Below are positions 28,100 through 59,823 of a stretch of 64,000 nt of DNA, piece after piece. The notes under the pieces were generated by a model. It was not told the origin of the DNA. It worked only from the letters and a program-made list of their open reading frames with translations, and ran no database searches. Both the position numbers and the translations under genes were made by a program. The DNA is from Octopus vulgaris (taxonomy: Eukaryota): NCBI GenBank assembly GCA_951406725.2, contig OX597823.1, positions 40,548,001-40,612,000 on the forward strand. The letters are read 5' to 3'. Position 1 is the stretch's first letter, and each line of letters begins with the position of its first letter.

Positions 28100-28768
28100 C
28101 CAGGTCACCCCATATATTCTGTCCGTTTTTAGCTTTTTAAAAACTGAATGAAATTTAATAGTATTTTAGAATGTCTAATAGAATTGAAAATTATATTTAT
28201 GCACTTGTATACATTTAAACTAATTAAATATTATTTAACAGAATGATAAAATTAAAATTTATTTGATTAAAACCCTTTCTAACAAGGAAGTATCCAAAGA
28301 GCATTTAAGGCACATAATGCTTTATAAGTACAAAAAAGGAAACACTGCAGCCGAAGTGAAGAAAAAAGACCTGCTTTTTGTGAATCGAAAAGGAGTGATG
28401 TTTCATCAGGACAATGCACGACCCCACACTGCAAAGATCACATCACGGAAGATCGAAGAGCTTGGTTGGGAAAAAAAAATTCTTTATTCTCTCGACCTTG
28501 CTCCTTCAGACCATTTGTTTCGTAGTTTACAGAATCACTTGGGTGACATAACGTTCGCAGGCCAGAAGGAGGTCGAAACCGAGATTTCAGAGTTCTTCGC
28601 TTTGAAACCAAAAGAATTTTACATTGATGGGATTAAAAAGCTTGTAAATAGACGGAAGGAAGTCATAGATAATGAGGGAACATAGATGAGTAAATTTCAG
28701 TTAAATATAACATTTGATCACCTGTTTCCATTATTCAAAATTCGGACAGAACTTATGGGATGACCTGA
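28100..28768 (+). mobile_element. Internally deleted mariner transposon (~670 bp)
   Basis: TIRs CAGGTCACCCCATATATTCTGTCCG (28101) / CGGACAGAACTTATGGGATGACCTGA (28743-28768), followed by TA; transposase remnant inside. Confidence 0.9.
28263..28685 (+). pseudogene. Mariner (DD34D) transposase remnant
   Basis: N-terminal HLRHIMLY..KKGNTAAE fused to C-terminal FHQDNARPHTA and YSLDLAPSDHLF motifs; central region and first catalytic Asp missing. Confidence 0.9.
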
Positions 28769-45050: not shown

Positions 45051-47031
45051 CCTATATGATTCTCTCAGATACACACATAAAGTTTTTAGTAAGAAATATT
45101 TCAGAGAACTTCATTTAATAACAATGTGCTAATTAGTTGAAATGTGTTTAAACCCATATCATCACGGATCGTGCCGGTTTATGTTCAGAGATTTTTCCAG
45201 CCATTACCACTTCGAATTATTTTCAGGTTTATGATTCGATTTCTTAAGACGGCAAAGAAGGAAGGAGATTGAGCGAAGATTTGGTTGTCATGTGCATGTA
45301 TGTTTATGAGTTGCCAGCATCACTGTGTGTGAGTATCTAATAAGCAGTGATAATTATTTTTATATTATATGTTTATTTACAACAAACTTAAAGAGATTCC
45401 AACGCAAAACATAGCAGATTCTATTATCTAAGTGGCAAATCATAAAAAAAAACATACTTTACACGATATTTTCAAGTGTTAACAAATGAAAAACAAACTT
45501 CAAGATTCTCGTTGAAATAACGAATGTCCAAAATAAATGATAAATAACGTTTTCACGCTGCAAATTCTTCAGTGGATTTTTTTATCAATAGTTTCTGTTT
45601 TTCTCATTGATTTAATAGTATATCGTCATTACACTAGCTGAAACAGCAGCATACTGCATTACTAAATAACTTTTCAATTTTCAGCTTGATTCCTCTAAAC
45701 TGAAATGTCGTTATCGTTGATTTTACCCTTCATTATGTTGGAGCTGATAAAGTAAATAGCAGTAATATACTGACGTAGATCTAATTTATTTTATCCCCCC
45801 GCTTCACTATGAATTTGTGAAAATTGATTTCCTGGTTAATCGAAACAAGTCAATATTATACTGTAATTGTATTTTCACCAATTTATTCAAATAAGTTTTA
45901 GATGTCTACATTTTATTTTGAGAGACACCAATTTCTTCAATCAGGAATACTATTTAAATAGATAAATTCTTTATACCTACGGGATGAGAAATATTTATTA
46001 CTAAAATGTGTGTTTGTGTGTTTGTGTGTTTGTTTGTGTGTGTGTTTGTTTGTGTGTGTGTGTGTTTGTGTGTGTGTGTGACGTTTTACCTTTGACCTAT
46101 AGTATACTGTTTGGAATCAAATTCTTCCCACAGTTCAAAGTATGTGTTTTTACTTGAAATCAGATGATTTACCTTGATACTTCTTTTTCTCGGATGATGT
46201 TCTTATTTCATTTCTCGGATCCTACGCTGTGTAAGGGGTGATTTTAAGATTTGTCTAGAAATTTTGATGTACTTTAATATTGAACAGTTTTGAAATGAAT
46301 TGACTGGAAGAAAGATTGTTACAATTTACATTGTCGATAGCTATCGCTAAATTAAAGAAAAACAGCTCCAATTGGTTTGGAAGAATGAATAATCAAAGAG
46401 TTAGAGCAAAATGTTATATCAAATACTGATGGAATAACCAGAAAATGACATCCCCCGATAGCCGTATTGCAGTTGTAACTTACTTTTATCTTTCATTAAA
46501 AGATGCAGGGTCTACCAAATGCTGTGTTGATTTTATAAACGTGGAAATTTTGTTATGCAACAGAGTTCATAAATAGTAGGAATGGGGCTGCTCATTTCTA
46601 CTTATTTGGTATTGAAAAACGGATGTGGCAATGTTGTGGCCAAATTACAATAAGACTACAGTATTTAAGATGGAATAAAAATTTCCAAATACTCATTCAT
46701 ATGAATGCATAATTAAAGGCGACAGTTGTCAGGAAAGATGAATATTATAGAAAGCATAATATTATGTTAGGTATTAAACAGATTTTCTGACATCGCTCTG
46801 CCTTTTTCCTTTACATAATTACGTCTTCCATTTCGAATATCTTTCGTAGTGGCAGTCACTAATTATCAAGGTCAGTCACTGAGTAAAATAGATATGATCT
46901 TTCTAACAAATTTATTTGTACATCAATAAATACAGATATAATGACAATATCGGGACAAAAACAGCTAAAGACTTCGAATATTAAGACTTAAATTTTATAT
47001 CATCGCATTAATTTAAATAAGATTTTCTCTC

Positions 47032-47086
<55 letters not shown>

Positions 47087-47131
47087 CCCAGCCTGTCTGA
47101 CTGTTTATCTGTAGATATAGGTATTTTATTT

Positions 47132-47466
47132 TTATTACCCCACCGCCTTCGCTAAGGCAGAGGTAGTGTATTCAGTCGCGTTTGTTTGTCCGTGGACAAG
47201 ATATCTCAAGAACCGCTGAATGAATTCGGATGAAACTTTCAGGGATGTTTGGCCTCGTGACTGGCACGAGCAGATTAGATTTTGGGATTTTCCCTGTAGT
47301 TTTCCTAAAAATTTTGAGAGCGGTCGGGTTCATTTTTTAGTTTCTCGTTTGTGAGAGCAGTCGAGTTTATTTCAGATATTCTAATTTTAAAATCATCTCC
47401 GGCTAATCGTTGAGAAGGCGCTGGTGTTGTATTGGCTGAGGTTTGCGCTCTCTGAGTGCTATTGTT
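47132..47466 (+). mobile_element. Non-autonomous Helentron/HINE (DINE-1-like) element
   Basis: T-rich start, 5' hairpin CCGCCTT-CGCT-AAGGCAG, GTTT/GTCC microsatellite, 3' GGCTGAGGT sub-TIR and terminal hairpin GCGCTC-TCT-GAGTGC before TT. Confidence 0.65.
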
Positions 47467-47671
47467 TTATCTGGGTTTTTAAAAAAAATTTTATCTTGGT
47501 TCCTCATCAACAATAGCATCGACAACTGCTAGAGTAAGGCGAAGCGGCTGCAGACACACTTGTATACTAATGTCGTAGGTTTACCAATCAATCTTCACTT
47601 TTGGTATATGTACTTAAGGAAAACAAAAGGAAAAGCCGAATACGGTGCTGTAGCATATAAGTACTATCGTG

Positions 47672-48040
47672 GCACTCCGTCGGTTACGATGACAAGGGTT
47701 ACAGTTGATCCGATCAACGAAACAACCTGCTCGTGAAATTAACGTGTAAGTGGCTGAGCACTCCACATACACGTGTACTCTTAATGTAGTTCTCGAAGAG
47801 ATTCAGCGTGACACAGAGTGTGACAAGGCTGGCTCTTTGAAATACAGGTACCACAAAGACAGGAAAAAAGAGTGAGAGAAAGTTGTGGTGAAAGAATACA
47901 GCTGGGCTTGTCCACCCCCACCGCCGGAGCCTCGTGGAGCTTTAGGTGTTTTCGCTCAATAAACACTCACAACGCCCGGTCTGGGAATCGAAACCGCGAT
48001 TCTACGACCGCAAGTCCGCTGCATTAACCACTGGGCCATT
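47672..48040 (-). mobile_element. tRNA-Arg-derived SINE (family A)
   Basis: Reverse-complement match to the 44672-45050 copy. Confidence 0.9.
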
Positions 48041-49377
48041 TCTCTCCTCCCCCCCACGCATATGTAAAATTTCCTTTTTTTCCTCTCTCTCTATCTCTTT
48101 CTCTTAAGTACTGCACTGTACTCGCAAAATTATGACAAAACTTCAAAATCATATTCCCAAATAAGCAAACTACATTTTTTTAAATGATGATGGCTACTAA
48201 CAAATATTTCATTGTTGCGAAACTTCAACATTTGGTAGAACTAAAGCAAAAAGTTGAAATATAAAAGAAAACATTCTTTGTAATATTTGAGAAAACAATT
48301 GAACGATTCCAGACATTATCCAAAGACTTTACCGAAAGTTAGAGATCATAAAAAGAAAAGAAAATTGAAGAAATATATAAAAATAAATTGAAAAATAAGT
48401 GAAAAAAATCAAAAATAGACGTTAAATATGTCAGCTGTTACCCACCTTAATATAGCATGGCTAACCATGCACAATGGTGGAACTATAACTTAAGTCATGC
48501 GCAATTTTGCAGCTATAACTTGGATAAATTAATGAGGGAACTGCACATAGTTTAAAACTATCGATTATACATTTTAATGTCAATTTTTTTTTACCCAGCC
48601 GTTTAGCGGTTCAATAATTTATCGATATTTAGCCCGTGATTGTTTAAATGTCAGTTTAAATCTGTCTGTGTTACCACCGGGATGCAAAAATATTTACCAT
48701 ATTTTTGATTTGAAAGTCATAACAATAGCAATATATTCTTGGTCTTGTGTTGATTTCTTTACGTTTTTCATTTTAAATTCGTTTATGCTGACCAATTGAT
48801 TTCGTTTATGTGCTTATAAAAAAAGATTTCTACGAATATTATTATTGTATACGTTCATTGACAATTGATATAGTCATTTCTATTGTAACATTAAAAAAAA
48901 AAGCTCACTCACACATTCGCATATACTACGACATCCCACATACGTAATACAAATGTAGTCATAAATAGGTCGTAGATATTCAACTGACCTATTTGTTTAC
49001 GTACACACATACACACGCACGCACACACACAAACATATATATGTGTGTATAAATCTAAACATATATGTGCGTGTGTGTTCCTGTGTGTGTATTAAAAAAA
49101 AATTTATAGCACTTTTAAAAGTAGCTAGTCAATATTCAGTTTTGCAGTTATTCTATACTGAGAGCAACGTTAGATATATTATAATGACCGAGATGAATAG
49201 GGCATCAAGTTTCGCTCATCAGCTTGGCCAAACAGTGAGGGGATTTTATCTATTAGTGCCTTTGAATGGGGAGTTGAACTTTGACAAAAAAGCTGTTTTC
49301 ATCCATAGACAAAAACTGAAGTCCCGCTTTATTTGATTCTCACAGTTAATATACGATATATCTCTGCGCATATGTAA

Positions 49378-49425
<48 letters not shown>

Positions 49426-49608
49426 ACACACAAACACATACACATAAAATCTTTATTATAGGCACAATGGCCTGAATGAAGAGGGGACATAACAATACAA
49501 TACAGGATATGGGGTACATATAACAAAAATACAGAAAGGATGATATGAAGTGAAATATTAACAATTAATTAAATGAAATGGCTTACGGGCCCCACAAAGC
49601 TCGCAGTT

Positions 49609-51017
49609 TCATTTAGAATTACAGTTATGCCATCTGGAGTGTTCGTCAGTAATGTAAACGAGTAATTCATCCTGTTCTATAACGCCGGGCAAACTGTCAT
49701 ATCTAACGTAGTGCGCTATGCACACAGCTGTATTTGAAAACAAATTTATTAATTTATTTACCGTCTCTTTTTCCACTATTGCAGCCTTTATTTGGTTATC
49801 GTATATCCTCGGGTTCAATTTCACTCTCGTTAGATTTTTTCATTATCGCTAATTTTTTTCTCAATTTCTTTATCTTTTTTGTACAACATTACAGCTTTGA
49901 GATTTCTTCCTTTGGGTCTTCCTCCTTCTTTGCATGTTTTCAGACATTCTTCCACTTTTGTTGACCATTTTTCCGTTTCATCCCACGCTGGACCCTCACT
50001 CACTTTAGTTGCTGTATCTCTCCCTTCGTGAGTTCGATCCTCTGTCTCATCGGCAGACTTCTTTTTAGTTTTTTTTCTTTTTTTGGTCTTTGGGTGGTGA
50101 TTCCACCCGTGTTCGCTTTCTATCCTCTTTTTCTTCTGTTCTTTCCTTTTCTTTCTCCTTCACTAACTCGTCGCCACTTTCTATATTATCTGTTGTCATG
50201 ATCTCTTCTTCCGCTTGTAGTTCTACATTCTCTTTTTCTAACTCCTCTGTCAAAGCTTTTATTCCTTCCTCCAGTGTTATCGTCTTCTCTTGTATTCCTT
50301 TTTGAGGACACACATCCTTCATGTGCCCTCTGCTTTTACATTTATAACACACTGGAGGTCTCCCCTCCACCACGACTCTCAGTCGTATCTCGTCGGGGAA
50401 TACCAACTCCTCCGGAATGTTGTACAAATCTGGCATGGTTATGTGGATTAGGGTTTCCACCGCATAACCCCACCAGTTTATTTCATTCGACTTTTCCACC
50501 TTGAGTATGTCCACGTCCTCCTTGCAGTTGTAAATTATTGCAGCTACTATTCTTTCGGTATCAAGGTCCGGTGGAATTTTGCTTATACGTACCCGCGCCA
50601 CTCTTCTTCCACAATAATTAGGAAGTAATACCCATTTTTCTGGACTCAACACTGTCGTTGCATTCCTTTTTGCTTCAACTTCCTTTTCGAAGCGAACTTC
50701 TACTGTTGCGTATTTTCTACCTGTATTGTAGAAGGTAGTTATTCCTTTTATTTCTTGTAAACATTTTTCAATCTCTTCTACTTCTGCCACTTCTATTCTT
50801 TTTGAGACCACATTCCATGTTCTATATGCTATGGTTTTTTCCTCTGTTTTTTTTTAACTTCGTCTTCAGGTGGTGTAATCCTCAGACAGCCTCCTTCCTT
50901 TTTGAAGCTGTCACAGTATTTCCTCAGATTTTCTTTCTCAATAATAATTTTTTTTAACTGTAATACATTCGCAGACAGGCTTTTACCTGCTGCTTTCACA
51001 TAAGTCGGAGCTTGCAT
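49609..51017 (-). pseudogene. LINE ORF1 (gag-like nucleic-acid-binding protein, CCHC zinc knuckle), ~469 aa when three 1-bp indels in A runs are corrected
   Basis: Joins ORFs 50829..51035, 50065..50811, an open stretch ~50069-49841 and 49609..49824. N-terminus MQAPTYVKAAG, RRM-like ATVEVRF / RVRISKIPP, then VVVEGRPPVCYKCKSRGHMKDVC (CX2CX4HX4C) and a charged linker. Shifts at 50847-55, ~50069-76 and 49835-40; no nonsense codons. Confidence 0.8.
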
Positions 51018-51135
51018 ACCCAACAAAGAATTCAACAGTTATAACGTTCAACACGACGCAACAGTTTTCAACAACAATAATCAACAAAATTCAATTCACA
51101 ACCGCAAATCCGAAAAACCGACACAAACACTTCCG

Positions 51136-51164
51136 CGCGATATTACCCTGTGCCAGGTAAGTAT
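51136..51164 (-). ncRNA. 5'-terminal fragment of U1 snRNA (~29 nt), not a full gene
   Basis: ATACTTACCTGGCA equals the conserved first 14 nt of metazoan U1; the continuation CAGGGTAATATCGCG resembles the start of stem-loop I; rest of U1 (Sm site) absent. Confidence 0.65.
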
Positions 51165-51173
51165 GACACACGC

Positions 51174-51278
<105 letters not shown>

Positions 51279-51288
51279 AATATATCAG

Positions 51289-51805
51289 CAATAATAAGTC
51301 TCTGAGCGATATATATACAGTAGCAGCACGACATCGTGAAGTATATTCGCCACCTAAATGTGGCTAACCCTTAAGGGCCAATGCTGCTGTAGCTTGTCGC
51401 CCCAGGAAGACATCGCCTCCAGCTGGCTATTGTAACACTATCTGTGCCCTATCAGTATTTACAAAGAGAAGTCATCATTCCCATCTCCAGCCTGACGGGT
51501 ATTGACCCGTCATCAGCGTGTGACAACCACCGGTTGGCGATGGGAAGTGATTCTCCAATGCAAATATATATATACATTTTCCAGTGACAAAAATTCACTG
51601 ATCTCGAAAACGTGGGGACAAACAATAATAAATCTCTGAGCAAGATATAAACAGTAGCAGCGCGACATCATGAACTATATTTGCCACCTAGATGTGGCTA
51701 ACTCTTAAGGATAGATGCTACTGTAGCTACTGTAGCTTGTAGCTCCAGGAAGACATCTCCTGTTGGCTATTGACACACTATCTGTGCCCAATAAGTATTT
51801 GCAAA
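51289..51805 (+). repeat. Direct duplication (~180 bp, ~333 bp apart)
   Basis: AATAATAAGTCTCTGAGC...CTATCTGTGCCC..AGTATTT at ~51289-51465 repeated at ~51622-51805. Confidence 0.85.
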
Positions 51806-51843
51806 ATATTTATTTATGTATGCATATATATGTGTGTATGTAC

Positions 51844-51895
<52 letters not shown>

Positions 51896-51989
51896 ATATC
51901 AGGGTAGCAAAAAATTCAAGAGAAATTTTTTCGCCACCAGCGGTCCAGTGAGAAAAAAAAATAGTCAACAGACTATATAACGTACATTC

Positions 51990-52209
51990 AACAATATTAA
52001 GGAATGGCCTTCGTAGGCCATTCGACCCACTAGAAAGAGCAGCTAAACTCAAACCGCTAAATAGTAGTAATTCAGAAATCAAAGGATAATAAAAGGGTAA
52101 ATGTTTTTATTTTCCTTTGATTTCTGAATTACTACTATTAAGCGGTTTGAGTTTAGCTGCTCTTTCTAGTGGGTCGAATGGTGTATCAAGGCCATTCCTT
52201 AATATTGTT
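51990..52209. repeat. ~105-bp-arm near-perfect palindrome
   Basis: 51990-52094 pairs with 52104-52209; loop GGGTAAATG; few mismatches. Confidence 0.95.
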
Positions 52210-52264
52210 ATATATAAATATAGGTGTGTGTGTATGTGTGAATGTATGTGTGTGAGTATTGTTT

Positions 52265-52545
52265 TGTCACTAGTTTCAGCTCGAGAGCTGTGGCCATGCT
52301 GGGGTACCACCGTTTTCTTTGTTACACTTTCACTAAACCTCCTCTGATATGTAGCATTTGGCAAATGAGGTAGTTCGATGTTGCTGCCGCGAGGTAGGTT
52401 CATACGGAACTCTTGACAGGAGTGGATCTAGTTTTGTTTTGAAGTAACCTACATCGCCCCATGCAGCTCTCCCAGGCTCTGTGGGAAGGTACTGAAGAGC
52501 TGTAAGCCCTAGAAACCGAAGCCGTTGTAACATCTAGTCCTGTAT
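52265..52545 (-). mobile_element. 3' end of a CR1-group LINE (ORF2 C-terminus plus tail)
   Basis: Translation CYNGFGF*GLQLFSTFPQSLGELHG / DVGYFKTKLDPLLSRVPYEPTS matches the typical ORF2 end; tail GGTACCCCAGCATGGCCACAGCTCTCGAGCTGAAACTAGT. Confidence 0.7.
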
Positions 52546-52693
52546 CCTGAGGACAATGTTGGGACTTTTAGTATATGTATATATATATATATATATTAAT
52601 GGTCATTAAAGTTGCTACTTCATTGCTGTAGTGAAACTGAATTCCACTTGTCAGTATTTATAGAATTTACCATAGAAATCCATGACAGATGCA

Positions 52694-52737
<44 letters not shown>

Positions 52738-52819
52738 TAAGGAAATGTTTTTTATTCTCAAACGCAGGATAATGTTAATAATATAGTATGAACAGTATAA
52801 TCTACCTATATTTTGCAGA

Positions 52820-52905
52820 AAAATGTGTCGGCGGCCAGCCATAAGGCTCGAACTCACACCGCTGTGGTTACGCGTCGCAGTGCGCTGCCTTTCATCTAAA
52901 CTTCT
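52820..52905 (-). mobile_element. tRNA-like SINE head fragment between ~60-bp direct repeats
   Basis: Minus strand GGTGTGAGTTCGAGCC B box; flanking TTAAGGAA..TTCTCAAACG.AGGAT repeats at ~52737 and ~53029. Confidence 0.45.
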
Positions 52906-53094
52906 GCAAATTCTTCTGCAAATTTAGGATCTATAAATCTCGCTTTATAATACGCTATTGTACGTTAAATTCAAATTACGATGAAATCAAACACAGTTTG
53001 CTTTAGAAGCTTTGAGATGTCTGGAAAGTTAAGGAAGTAATTTTTCATTCTCAAACGTAGGATGCTCATAATATAGCATGAATCAGAATTATAC

Positions 53095-53129
<35 letters not shown>

Positions 53130-54156
53130 GTGTAATAAATAAAATATATGCATACATACAAACATATATGTACGTACCGACATCTACATGTATATATACA
53201 TGCATATATAAATATATATACGTACAGGACACTACAAGAAGACATATATATATATATATATATATGTAACTGCAGGCATGCCTGTGTGGTGTAGAAGAAC
53301 GCTTTGCATCCCAATGGTTTCCCGTTCAGTCATACCGGAAAAAACTGTAAATTAATACAGAAGGAAATTGTGTGGAGCCTGTCATTATAAATGTGTGTCT
53401 GTGTGAGTGTATGTGTGTATATACGTATATATATGTGTGTGTGTGTATATGTCTATGTACACATGTACGTATGAGTGTATGCGTACTTATTAATTTCTCT
53501 GTAGCTGAATAAGCGAACAACACTTCTGGGTTTGATTCAAAAGCGGTCTCTGCTGTTAAATTTCAGAACATACTTCATCAATTTAGAACAATTCAGAATA
53601 ATTTATTACCTATCCCATCATTCATTGCAATATACACATTAGTGAATTAGTGACAATGATCACCACACCTCACAACCTGGTCTTTCGTCCGTCCAAACTA
53701 TTCTTTATCACAATGATTGTGTTTATGACACTATGATGCTTATACATATATACATACATACATACATACATACATACATACATACATACATACATACATA
53801 CATAGATGCACACGTTCATTCATACACACACATATGTTTGTGTATATGCATGTATATATGTATGCATGTGTGTATGTATGCATGTGTGCATGTATGTATT
53901 CATTCACGCACACCCAACTATGTTTATTTTTGTCGATTAAATCTGTATATTTATGTATGTATGCTTATGTATAATTGTTTAATAGAAAACAAGACAATTA
54001 CATACGGCAAGCTCATCACATACCCAACTCCACCCCCGTATTAACTCATATTTCAATATAATTATATATATTTTGCCAGACGTTCTAATTTAATCGGAAA
54101 TTAAAGAAAAATAACACGCATGTGTATACGCTCACGCATACGAAACTTCATAATTA

Positions 54157-58619: not shown

Positions 58620-59823
58620 CCACTGCGCATGTGCGAATAATCGTGGTATTCGGCATGAAAGCGGTGAGACATGCTTTTGAAGCCGTCTCGAATTGAAAAA
58701 TTTTGAAGCTCCATTGTAAGGTACGATTCTGTTTTTTGGGTCCAGTGGGAATTTTTGTTGAGAATTGTTTTTGTACAGGCAGGAAGGCCTACTGGATTCA
58801 GAATTCTGGTTCTGGCTGTAGGGAGCGAATATTTTTTTTCGTTGAATTGTGAGAATTTTTGTTTGGGGGCGTATTCGTCTTCGGTTTATGTTGAGAGAAT
58901 ATTTTTCTCACTTAATTATGAGAATTGTTGCTTGGAGGAATATTGTGCCTTTTGAAGAATTTTTAAATAATTGTGAGAACTGCTGTTTGGGGGAGTGTCT
59001 TTGCCTCCGAAGATTGAACAATTTGTGTACCAATTTTTGTGGAAGTTGTATTCAAGTTGTTGCGGAAGACTTTTTTATTTGCTGTGTTTCTGAACTATTG
59101 ACTTTCTTTCTTCTAAACTTTATTCTAACGTTTTCTTTCTTTCTTCTAAACGGTGATTCTTGAGGTTCGCCCCCACCTCACCCCAAGTGTCATCGGTTCC
59201 TGGAGTCTGGTCATATAAAGAAAAACTGTCCCCAGGAACAAAATAAGGTCCCGGAGCAGTTGAGTGAGACCTCTATAGAAGAGGGAATGAAGGCGGCCGA
59301 GGAGGCGGAAGACTCCTCAAATAGGGGCAGAAAGAGGAAGAAGGTGAGCAACAATGGGTGCTCACCGAAGGATCCTAGGGATGAGGAGAGGAAGGCGAAT
59401 CTCCCGGTCACGGAGGAGACGCACCCTCCCTCAGTTGAAAAGATAAAAAAGAGGAAGAGAAACGGGACATTGCCGGCAGTCGGTGACATAGTACCAGAAT
59501 GTCCCAGAGCTACGTCGGTTGGGGTTGTGCCACCGGCAGGAGAAGAAACACCGTTGACGGGAACTGTGCCGCCAACGGAAGAATTGGATATCCCGCCCCC
59601 AGAAAAAGACGAATTATTGATCTTCTTCTATAGAGGCGGAGAGGTTGAAAAGGTAGTGGAAAATCACCATAAGGGAGCACCTTTAGCCTTCACACAGGAT
59701 CCCGAAAAGCCTCCGCAGGTAGCTGTGGACGTTATAACGTTTGACGAGGCATTTAGGGTGAAGGGGCTCAATGACGAATATCGCTTGTACCCGGGCGACG
59801 CCGACACGGAACTCGTCTCGTAA
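58620..59823 (+). mobile_element. Second, internally deleted Tx1/L1-like ORF1 element embedded in a SINE
   Basis: T-rich 5' region with repeated AATTGTGAGAA..TGTTTGGGGG units, then VILEVRP / CHRFLESGHIKKNC (decayed CCHC, in frame with ORF 59260..59823); ETSIEEGMKA resembles KTITLEEGIKA of the first element. Confidence 0.65.
59188..59823 (+). pseudogene. C-terminal half of LINE ORF1
   Basis: Decayed knuckle C-H-R-F-L-E-S-G-H-I-K-K-N-C, basic/acidic linker, and C-terminal block LLIFFYRGGEVEKVVENHHK similar to AVMLYKKDKEIEKKISDNEK in the 49609-51017 protein. Confidence 0.65.

Follow-up and report, generated by a model that had tools for sequence, protein, structure and literature searches.

The element and its U1 head

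The window, a stretch of 64,000 nucleotides from contig OX597823.1 of Octopus vulgaris, carries a retroelement at 51164-49446 on the minus strand. It starts with a piece of U1 snRNA (nt 1-19, 51146-51164), which passes through a short junction (GGTAA, 51143-51147) into the element's own 5′ end with a T-rich leader (51018-51142) common to the family described below. This is followed by ORF1 (49609-51017; ATG at 51017, stop codon at 49611-49609) and a 3′ UTR (49446-49608) ending with AATAAAG and the fixed short tail of one subfamily, all on the minus strand; a poly(A) tail is lacking at this 3′ end. ORF1 is split into pieces in three frames, the frame being shifted at three A-runs (near 50830, 50065 and 49870); these shifts may be homopolymer errors of the assembly. 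It includes a CCHC zinc knuckle (50308-50349, minus strand), matching Pfam zf-CCHC with E=0.0013, below the curated cut-off. The T-rich leader, single CCHC ORF1, AATAAA, lack of ORF2 and upstream microsatellite described in an earlier note on this DNA were all seen.

The microsatellite, (TG)n/(TA)n, lies directly upstream of the U1 head (51166-51285) and constitutes an off-target insertion site. Positions 51166-51182 and 49428-49444 may represent a decayed 17-bp target duplication; by eye they agree at 13 of 17 positions, a weak likeness as both are microsatellite. While the microsatellite had been reported correctly, the array of ribozyme repeats beyond it had been overlooked. About 1.5 damaged monomers of a class A hammerhead retrozyme repeat (51287-51805, minus strand), the normal target of the family, end ~120 bp upstream of the U1 head; the element is not at its usual site here. 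The array contains a match to the PSE-like motif of the retrozyme (beginning ATCAGTG, 51581-51602, minus strand) and a damaged hammerhead core (51496-51516, minus strand), in which GAAA, stem III and the cleavage site are missing. An Rfam scan of window positions 47000-54000 returned neither a U1 nor a hammerhead match, only microsatellite and hairpin noise, because the U1 head is too short and the local hammerhead core is damaged.

Host U1 genes were identified by an Rfam search (42 matches), and 20 loci were read. Compared to these, the element begins exactly at U1 nt 1 (51164, minus strand), as had been claimed. The U1 head is real, but its proposed length of ~29 nt did not hold: the exact match covers 19 nt (51164-51146) of the variant at loci L049/L050 and 18 nt of the commoner variant of the C18 array. 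In the alignment of 51164-51120 to host U1 divergence sets in after nt 19, beyond the ~11-14 nt that had been set as the limit for a chance match. A 19-nt U1 match is expected by chance 1.6e-7 times in the window and 0.007 times genome-wide. Element nt 18-35 match the head of a sister copy, L067, at 17 of 18 nt, and therefore nt 18-22 (GGTAA), which correspond to about U1 nt 18-23, are a shared junction, while the element proper extends from nt 23 onward.

Genome-wide searches for the U1 head joined to the element, for the U1 5′ fragment, and for the U1 junction with three mismatches allowed returned the window locus only, and the head is present in one of 40 family copies examined. A looser search with a 13-mer of the U1 start gave 60 matches. 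Those read comprised 18 non-gene or partial loci and one full-length U1 copy, and yielded a U1 piece at L278, a 3′-truncated retrocopy (L281) and chance matches. At L278 (G000:C14:41021885-41021932, minus strand) U1 nt 1-26 are fused to unrelated DNA headed by a TTAGGG-like repeat. The U1 head is a genuine one-off accident of the window copy. A U1-headed family is unsupported, since the head is a singleton and the searches revealed no U1 gene into which the element is inserted.

Family, target repeat and two-ORF relatives

The first 215 nt of the element were used as query for a family search, in which the best 40 of 66 candidates were scored; the copy sets given here are such top-40 lists, and the 39 copies other than the window copy were fetched. 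They represent a family of at least 40 ORF1-only, HAL1-like copies of ~1.7 kb. Thirty of the 40 (29 others and the window copy) map through to the 3′ tail without an ORF2, and ten end or are interrupted before it. The earlier note would have been contradicted by family copies that lack U1 and carry ORF2. Indeed, U1 sequence is absent from the 5′ end of all 39 other copies, but the 29 whose 3′ end was mapped are all without ORF2, and the element is therefore not a one-off deletion. An intact ORF1 of 460 aa is present in copy L055, and a database search with ORF1 revealed one homologous protein, from Octopus bimaculoides. The window copy is 83-93% identical to 30 copies over the 5′ 1.2 kb, with L053 as the nearest. 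It forms a group with L053, L054, L055, L063 and L064 (support 1.0), which L067 joins in a shorter tree; L071 was omitted from both trees and eight short copies from the longer one. A mosaic of subfamilies was rejected for the window copy, as identity shifts along its length but no clear breakpoint is seen. Both target duplications and 5′ truncation, hallmarks of target-primed reverse transcription (TPRT), were observed in the family. A search of the genome with ORF1 scored at least 150 places, among them young identical copies of related ORF1-only families and their tandem arrays. Young near-identical ORF1-only elements with a 457-aa ORF form 1.8-kb tandem arrays at L133 (G000:C4:70042400-70052399), L134 and L136-L140, where the 5′ end of an element of the same kind, or of a different element coding for ORF1, serves as insertion site.

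A retrozyme lies directly on at least one flank of 36 of the 39 other copies selected by their 5′ part, at the 5′ flank in 32 of 39 and at the 3′ flank in 26 of the 29 with mapped 3′ end. Of the remaining three copies, L059 ends a tandem chain at a retrozyme, and L089 and L090 lie elsewhere. The tail is separated from the CTGANGA core by 19-24 nt in 14 and by 28-30 nt in 11 of the 29 mapped ends, and target duplications of ~9-21 bp are located at a fixed distance before the ribozyme core. When copies were selected by the 3′ UTR, 24 of 29 were, by eye, either at the target itself or in a tandem chain located there, and five were off target. Furthermore, 5′-truncated copies at the retrozyme site bear duplications of their own (e.g. 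L194, L180), and different element families form tandem chains there. A pattern of tail plus core gave 43 matches vs. none for the reversed control. Among 30 of these loci read, 26 are correctly oriented, with several tail families, and three contain sequence of reverse transcriptase (RT) or its zinc finger. Judged by these flanks, the regular host of the family is the hammerhead retrozyme repeat and not U1.

The target repeat is ~340-355 bp long, contains a type I hammerhead motif and occurs in at least two diverged classes (A, B). At least 1,297 exact repeat cores are present in the genome (control: 0), with dimer spacings of 342, 354 and 355; the copies are dispersed, permuted and often flanked by (TA)n. 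Cores selected by pattern show the three helices of a type I hammerhead, helix III being short and often palindromic. Covariation was analysed for 20 of 30 core loci, with cores picked by pattern and the structure set from one alignment row. Pairing was found in 95.4% of cells with 49 two-sided changes, and 0 of 500 shuffles scored as high, although relatedness inflates this test. Two-sided changes occur in each of the six pairs of stem I, and slid controls drop to 10-55%. Each of the 22 cores parsed has U-A or C-A at the base of stem II, where the canonical hammerhead has G-C, and the Rfam hammerhead model gave no match at E<=0.05 in four target loci. One monomer folds at -128.6 kcal/mol compared to -89.5 +/- 6.5 kcal/mol for 30 shuffles. 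A query for a Penelope-like RT matched in 4 of 30 core loci, compared to one of 56 controls and none of 59 insertion loci; we take this query to be Penelope (Pfam RVT_1 matched only weakly), and the link between the repeat and a Penelope-like RT is suggestive only.

Units of 170-400 nt, tandem or monomeric and strongly self-paired, are characteristic of retrozymes and were found here. By sequence and predicted fold the repeat fits the metazoan non-LTR retrozymes (Cervera and de la Pena 2020, PMC7229834), which measure 350-390 bp in mussel. Common to both are the type I hammerhead, monomers and dimers of 342-355 bp in the octopus, the short palindromic helix III and the strong self-pairing. The main text of PMC7229834 mentions neither octopus nor cephalopods and reports no role of retrozymes as retrotransposon target.

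Two-ORF elements were sought by an RT search of the genome followed by examination of 20 fetched loci. In a tblastn search ORF1 matched 17 of the 20 RT loci, with 26-36% identity in the main segment (best E 1e-37), and its N-terminal part is 28-36% identical to ORF1 of two-ORF elements with apurinic-type endonuclease (APE) and RT in the genome. ORF2 of these relatives includes APE, RT and zf-RVT domains; Pfam matches are Exo_endo_phos, RVT_1, zf-RVT and zf-CCHC for the young relatives L234/L235, and RVT_1 and zf-RVT for the retrozyme-inserted L129. Four two-ORF elements (L239, L242, L244, L251) sit at the same retrozyme site; retrozyme sequence either flanks them on both sides or adjoins their 5′ end along with a duplication that starts where transcription is predicted to begin (see below). 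A multi-copy ORF1-only family together with an autonomous APE/RT group supports the earlier proposal of an ORF1-only element mobilised in trans. The proposal had also called for an autonomous partner sharing the 3′ UTR: the APE/RT group at the same site is present, but no two-ORF element with the family's 3′ UTR was found among the loci searched. Blastn of the element against the 20 RT loci gave no match, and only two short tail motifs are common to both. Locus L128, considered as a partner sharing the tail, turned out to be two adjacent insertions.

Features of Tx1-type elements were found, namely a zinc-knuckle ORF1, an ORF2 with APE, RT and C-terminal zinc finger in the partners, and target-sequence specificity. 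The best PDB matches are L1-type RTs, and no named Tx1 reference occurs among the 120 homologues listed. An octopus annotation (PMC13282606) counts 80 L1-Tx1 families, and the supplement with this count mentions neither hammerhead nor retrozyme.

The targets of the relatives are two SINEs, one of them tRNA-like, as well as a second hammerhead-like repeat and TATA promoters. A young two-ORF family (L234, L237, L243) with a 1,140-aa ORF2 and tandem arrays of ~5.4 kb occupies a fixed site of the second hammerhead-like repeat, whose core is atypical. Another two-ORF family (L288-L316) targets a SINE whose 3′ tail resembles the tails of these elements, suggesting that this SINE is mobilised as well as targeted by the same element group. 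In the 5′ flanks of L250, L145 and L146, TATA (and CCAAT) boxes immediately precede the related elements, which suggests that such elements generally prefer transcription start sites.

A putative promoter motif of the target repeat

The motif ATCA[GA]T[GC] is located at -56 to -59 in 20 of 20 U1 and 14 of 15 U5 loci. A matching motif precedes the retrozyme core by 83-85 nt in 9 of 30 loci, belonging to both classes; it is found at 87-98 nt in five and elsewhere in three, and is absent within 130 nt in 13 of the 30, many of them visibly truncated. One class B variant has, by eye, 15 consecutive bases in common with a U5 upstream region. We infer that the motif, a sequence candidate for the octopus PSE, acts as such and starts transcription ~26-28 nt before the core, the distance predicted when the U1/U5 spacing is carried over to the retrozyme. 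This predicted start coincides with the cut site of one subfamily; the cut of the other subfamily lies about 10 nt beyond it. In L074 and L076 the duplication is followed by a second retrozyme 5′ segment, and the off-target copy L090 carries one as well; these retrozyme-type heads begin near the predicted start. Contigs of 4 among 24 runs listed, whose RNA origin is a guess, cover element plus repeat and contain the empty-site joint. A U1 loose end was seen in none of the contigs of the 24 runs listed (395 others exist), with the same guess as to RNA origin.

By eye, the U1/U5 motif at -57 is not present in the U6 genes L208, L210 and L215-L218, where a TATA box and, at about -75, an octamer-like motif are seen. 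Since U6 lacks the motif, as judged by eye, and the retrozyme contains a TATA-like run, the polymerase of the retrozyme is uncertain. Several U6 retrocopies are fused to SINE tails.

The general idea that elements lie just downstream of an snRNA-type promoter and take a head from the host RNA is supported, and the mechanism first suggested for U1 would apply with the retrozyme as host. An snRNA-type promoter, which has been described for newt satellite 2 (cited in PMC2220036), is hereby pointed to in a mollusc retrozyme, which bears on the transcription of such abundant RNAs.

Origin of the U1 head and known systems

For the family as a whole we propose with considerable confidence that the ORF1-only element inserts at one constant position immediately ahead of the hammerhead core in the ~350-bp repeat and is likely moved in trans by Tx1-like two-ORF elements using the same site. 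At this position the retrozyme promoter would drive transcription of the element together with ~19-26 nt of retrozyme as its head, through which the cDNA could anneal to the next target, a mode resembling the homology-guided junctions of R2 elements. The window copy is probably an off-target copy of this retrozyme-targeting family to which the U1 head was added once. Its RNA would have been primed in the microsatellite, without upstream homology, and the RT likely jumped at GGTAA onto the abundant U1 snRNA, which was then copied to its cap. We rate such a template switch as the source of the head slightly better than even. It is favoured by the singleton status, the lack of a master, the microhomology with the head of the sister clade and the U1 fusion at L278, and, by analogy, by the repeated addition of U1 to Tx1-mobilised RNAs in crocodilians (PMC4494074).

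A tentative alternative is that a master once resided in a U1 gene at about nt 19-23 and was transcribed from the U1 promoter, the window copy being its daughter and the master being lost, polymorphic or unassembled. U1 genes and retrozyme carry the upstream motif at the same spacing; a U1 master would place the element anchor 92-93 nt from it, and 23 on-target copies span 73-102 nt. The first nucleotide of the head is precisely U1 nt 1, the head's length of 19 nt is similar to that of the retrozyme heads (19-26 nt), and a U1-derived 3′ extension could account for the off-target landing. The rarity of human U1/L1 chimeras (PMC4476161) also favours a U1-gene master, which collapsed U1 arrays or diverged junctions could hide. 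Nevertheless, there is only one U1-headed daughter, a search for the tail joined to U1 gave one chance match and one control match, and the U1 5′ end resembles the target sites no better than shuffles do (fraction 0.33-0.99). Among the best 40 of 79 candidates one U1 without nt 1-19 was found (C1:193507310), but it is a truncated retrocopy without an element upstream and was rejected as master. Copies with an upstream PSE and the remainder of U1 downstream were absent from the U1-gene searches. With no interrupted U1 gene found and the retrozyme as regular host, the earlier claim of U1 as promoter donor of the whole family is not supported.

In a broader and rather unlikely scheme, octopus Tx1-like elements home on promoter-proximal positions instead of one sequence, and the U1-headed copy is the fossil of a master in a PSE-bearing U1 gene. 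Landing at the start site of PSE-driven retrozymes would provide promoter and target-homologous head from upstream, while the hammerhead rebuilt downstream by target duplication would give a defined, target-homologous 3′ end. If true, a ribozyme repeat would serve a guild of retroelements as promoter, 3′-end processor and landing pad.

That the U1 match reflects chance or an accident at the DNA level, i.e. a separate short U1 retrocopy beside the element or an assembly artefact, is improbable. Chance 13-mer matches to the U1 start are common and free 3′-truncated U1 retrocopies exist (L094, L281, L278), but the 19-mer expectation of 0.007 genome-wide and the abutting of U1 piece and element 5′ end through shared bases, without a spacer, argue against it. 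Still less credible, and largely refuted, is a retrozyme-plus-element composite amplified as a unit by hitch-hiking of an element without target specificity: the dispersed, permuted, often (TA)n-flanked retrozyme copies could include some composite daughters, but junctions and duplication lengths differ, at least two diverged retrozyme classes are hit, copies at the same site are independently 5′-truncated, and several distinct ORF1-only and two-ORF families occupy the site, also in tandem chains of different families.

Returning to the off-target copy of a retrozyme-targeting family, the family works like HAL1 and the target-specific Tx1 elements, being Tx1-like by its sequence features, and not like SINEU or Keno. 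HAL1 (half-L1) is non-autonomous, encodes ORF1p only and is moved in trans (PMC5753468), and the octopus family is likewise ORF1-only and likely moved in trans. It differs from HAL1 by the cephalopod host, the CCHC-type ORF1, the lack of a poly(A) tail and a strict target site; in addition, several ORF1-only families exist side by side, and some of them are young and arranged in tandem. In crocodilians, protein-coding Tx1 families with U1 heads have already been published (PMC4494074), and the system to compare is that of Tx1-Mar and SINEU (Kojima 2015). Its heads are shared throughout the family and a Mariner MITE is targeted, whereas in the octopus a single copy has U1 and the elements target a hammerhead retrozyme with an snRNA-type motif; unlike SINEU with its family-wide U1/U2 head, the element is 1.7 kb long with an ORF1 and not short and non-coding. 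Keno and Utopia target U2, Keno being APE-type (PMC4640811) like the partners here, and they share with the octopus elements the use of a specific insertion site close to the 5′ end of a small-RNA unit present in many copies. In the octopus, however, the search of U1 genes revealed no snRNA-gene insertion, and the target is not a host gene. Chimeras of snRNA and LINE (U6/L1) mostly involve U6/U6atac, and 33 human U1 copies included no U1/L1 template-switch chimera (PMC4476161). They resemble the window copy in the one-off fusion of an snRNA 5′ piece to a retroelement, but here a 19-nt U1 piece stands on a near full-length element.

The U1 head by itself is a minor one-off. The retrozyme target system is well supported and apparently undescribed: in titles and abstract starts no report was found of retroelements targeting retrozymes or of octopus retrozymes, while Repbase or Dfam may record the families. 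Hammerhead retrozymes would add a target class for site-specific non-LTR elements. The guild of ORF1-only and two-ORF families, which differ in their targets (two hammerhead repeats, two SINEs or TATA promoters) and include young and intact members, offers a natural series on the evolution of APE-type target choice and on why ORF1 is kept in cis.

Further elements are located in the window. A second, unrelated-looking element with a T-rich leader and a broken gag-like ORF lies at ~58620-59823 (plus strand). It has a zinc-knuckle-like motif by eye, with no Pfam match, and begins inside a tRNA-like SINE head; a similar SINE head is targeted by the two-ORF elements L247-L249. A near-perfect inverted repeat of ~190 bp at 52006-52193 is a MITE-like foldback, which matched a miRNA model only as a hairpin, and 28317-28685 (plus strand) is presumably a mariner-like transposase fragment.
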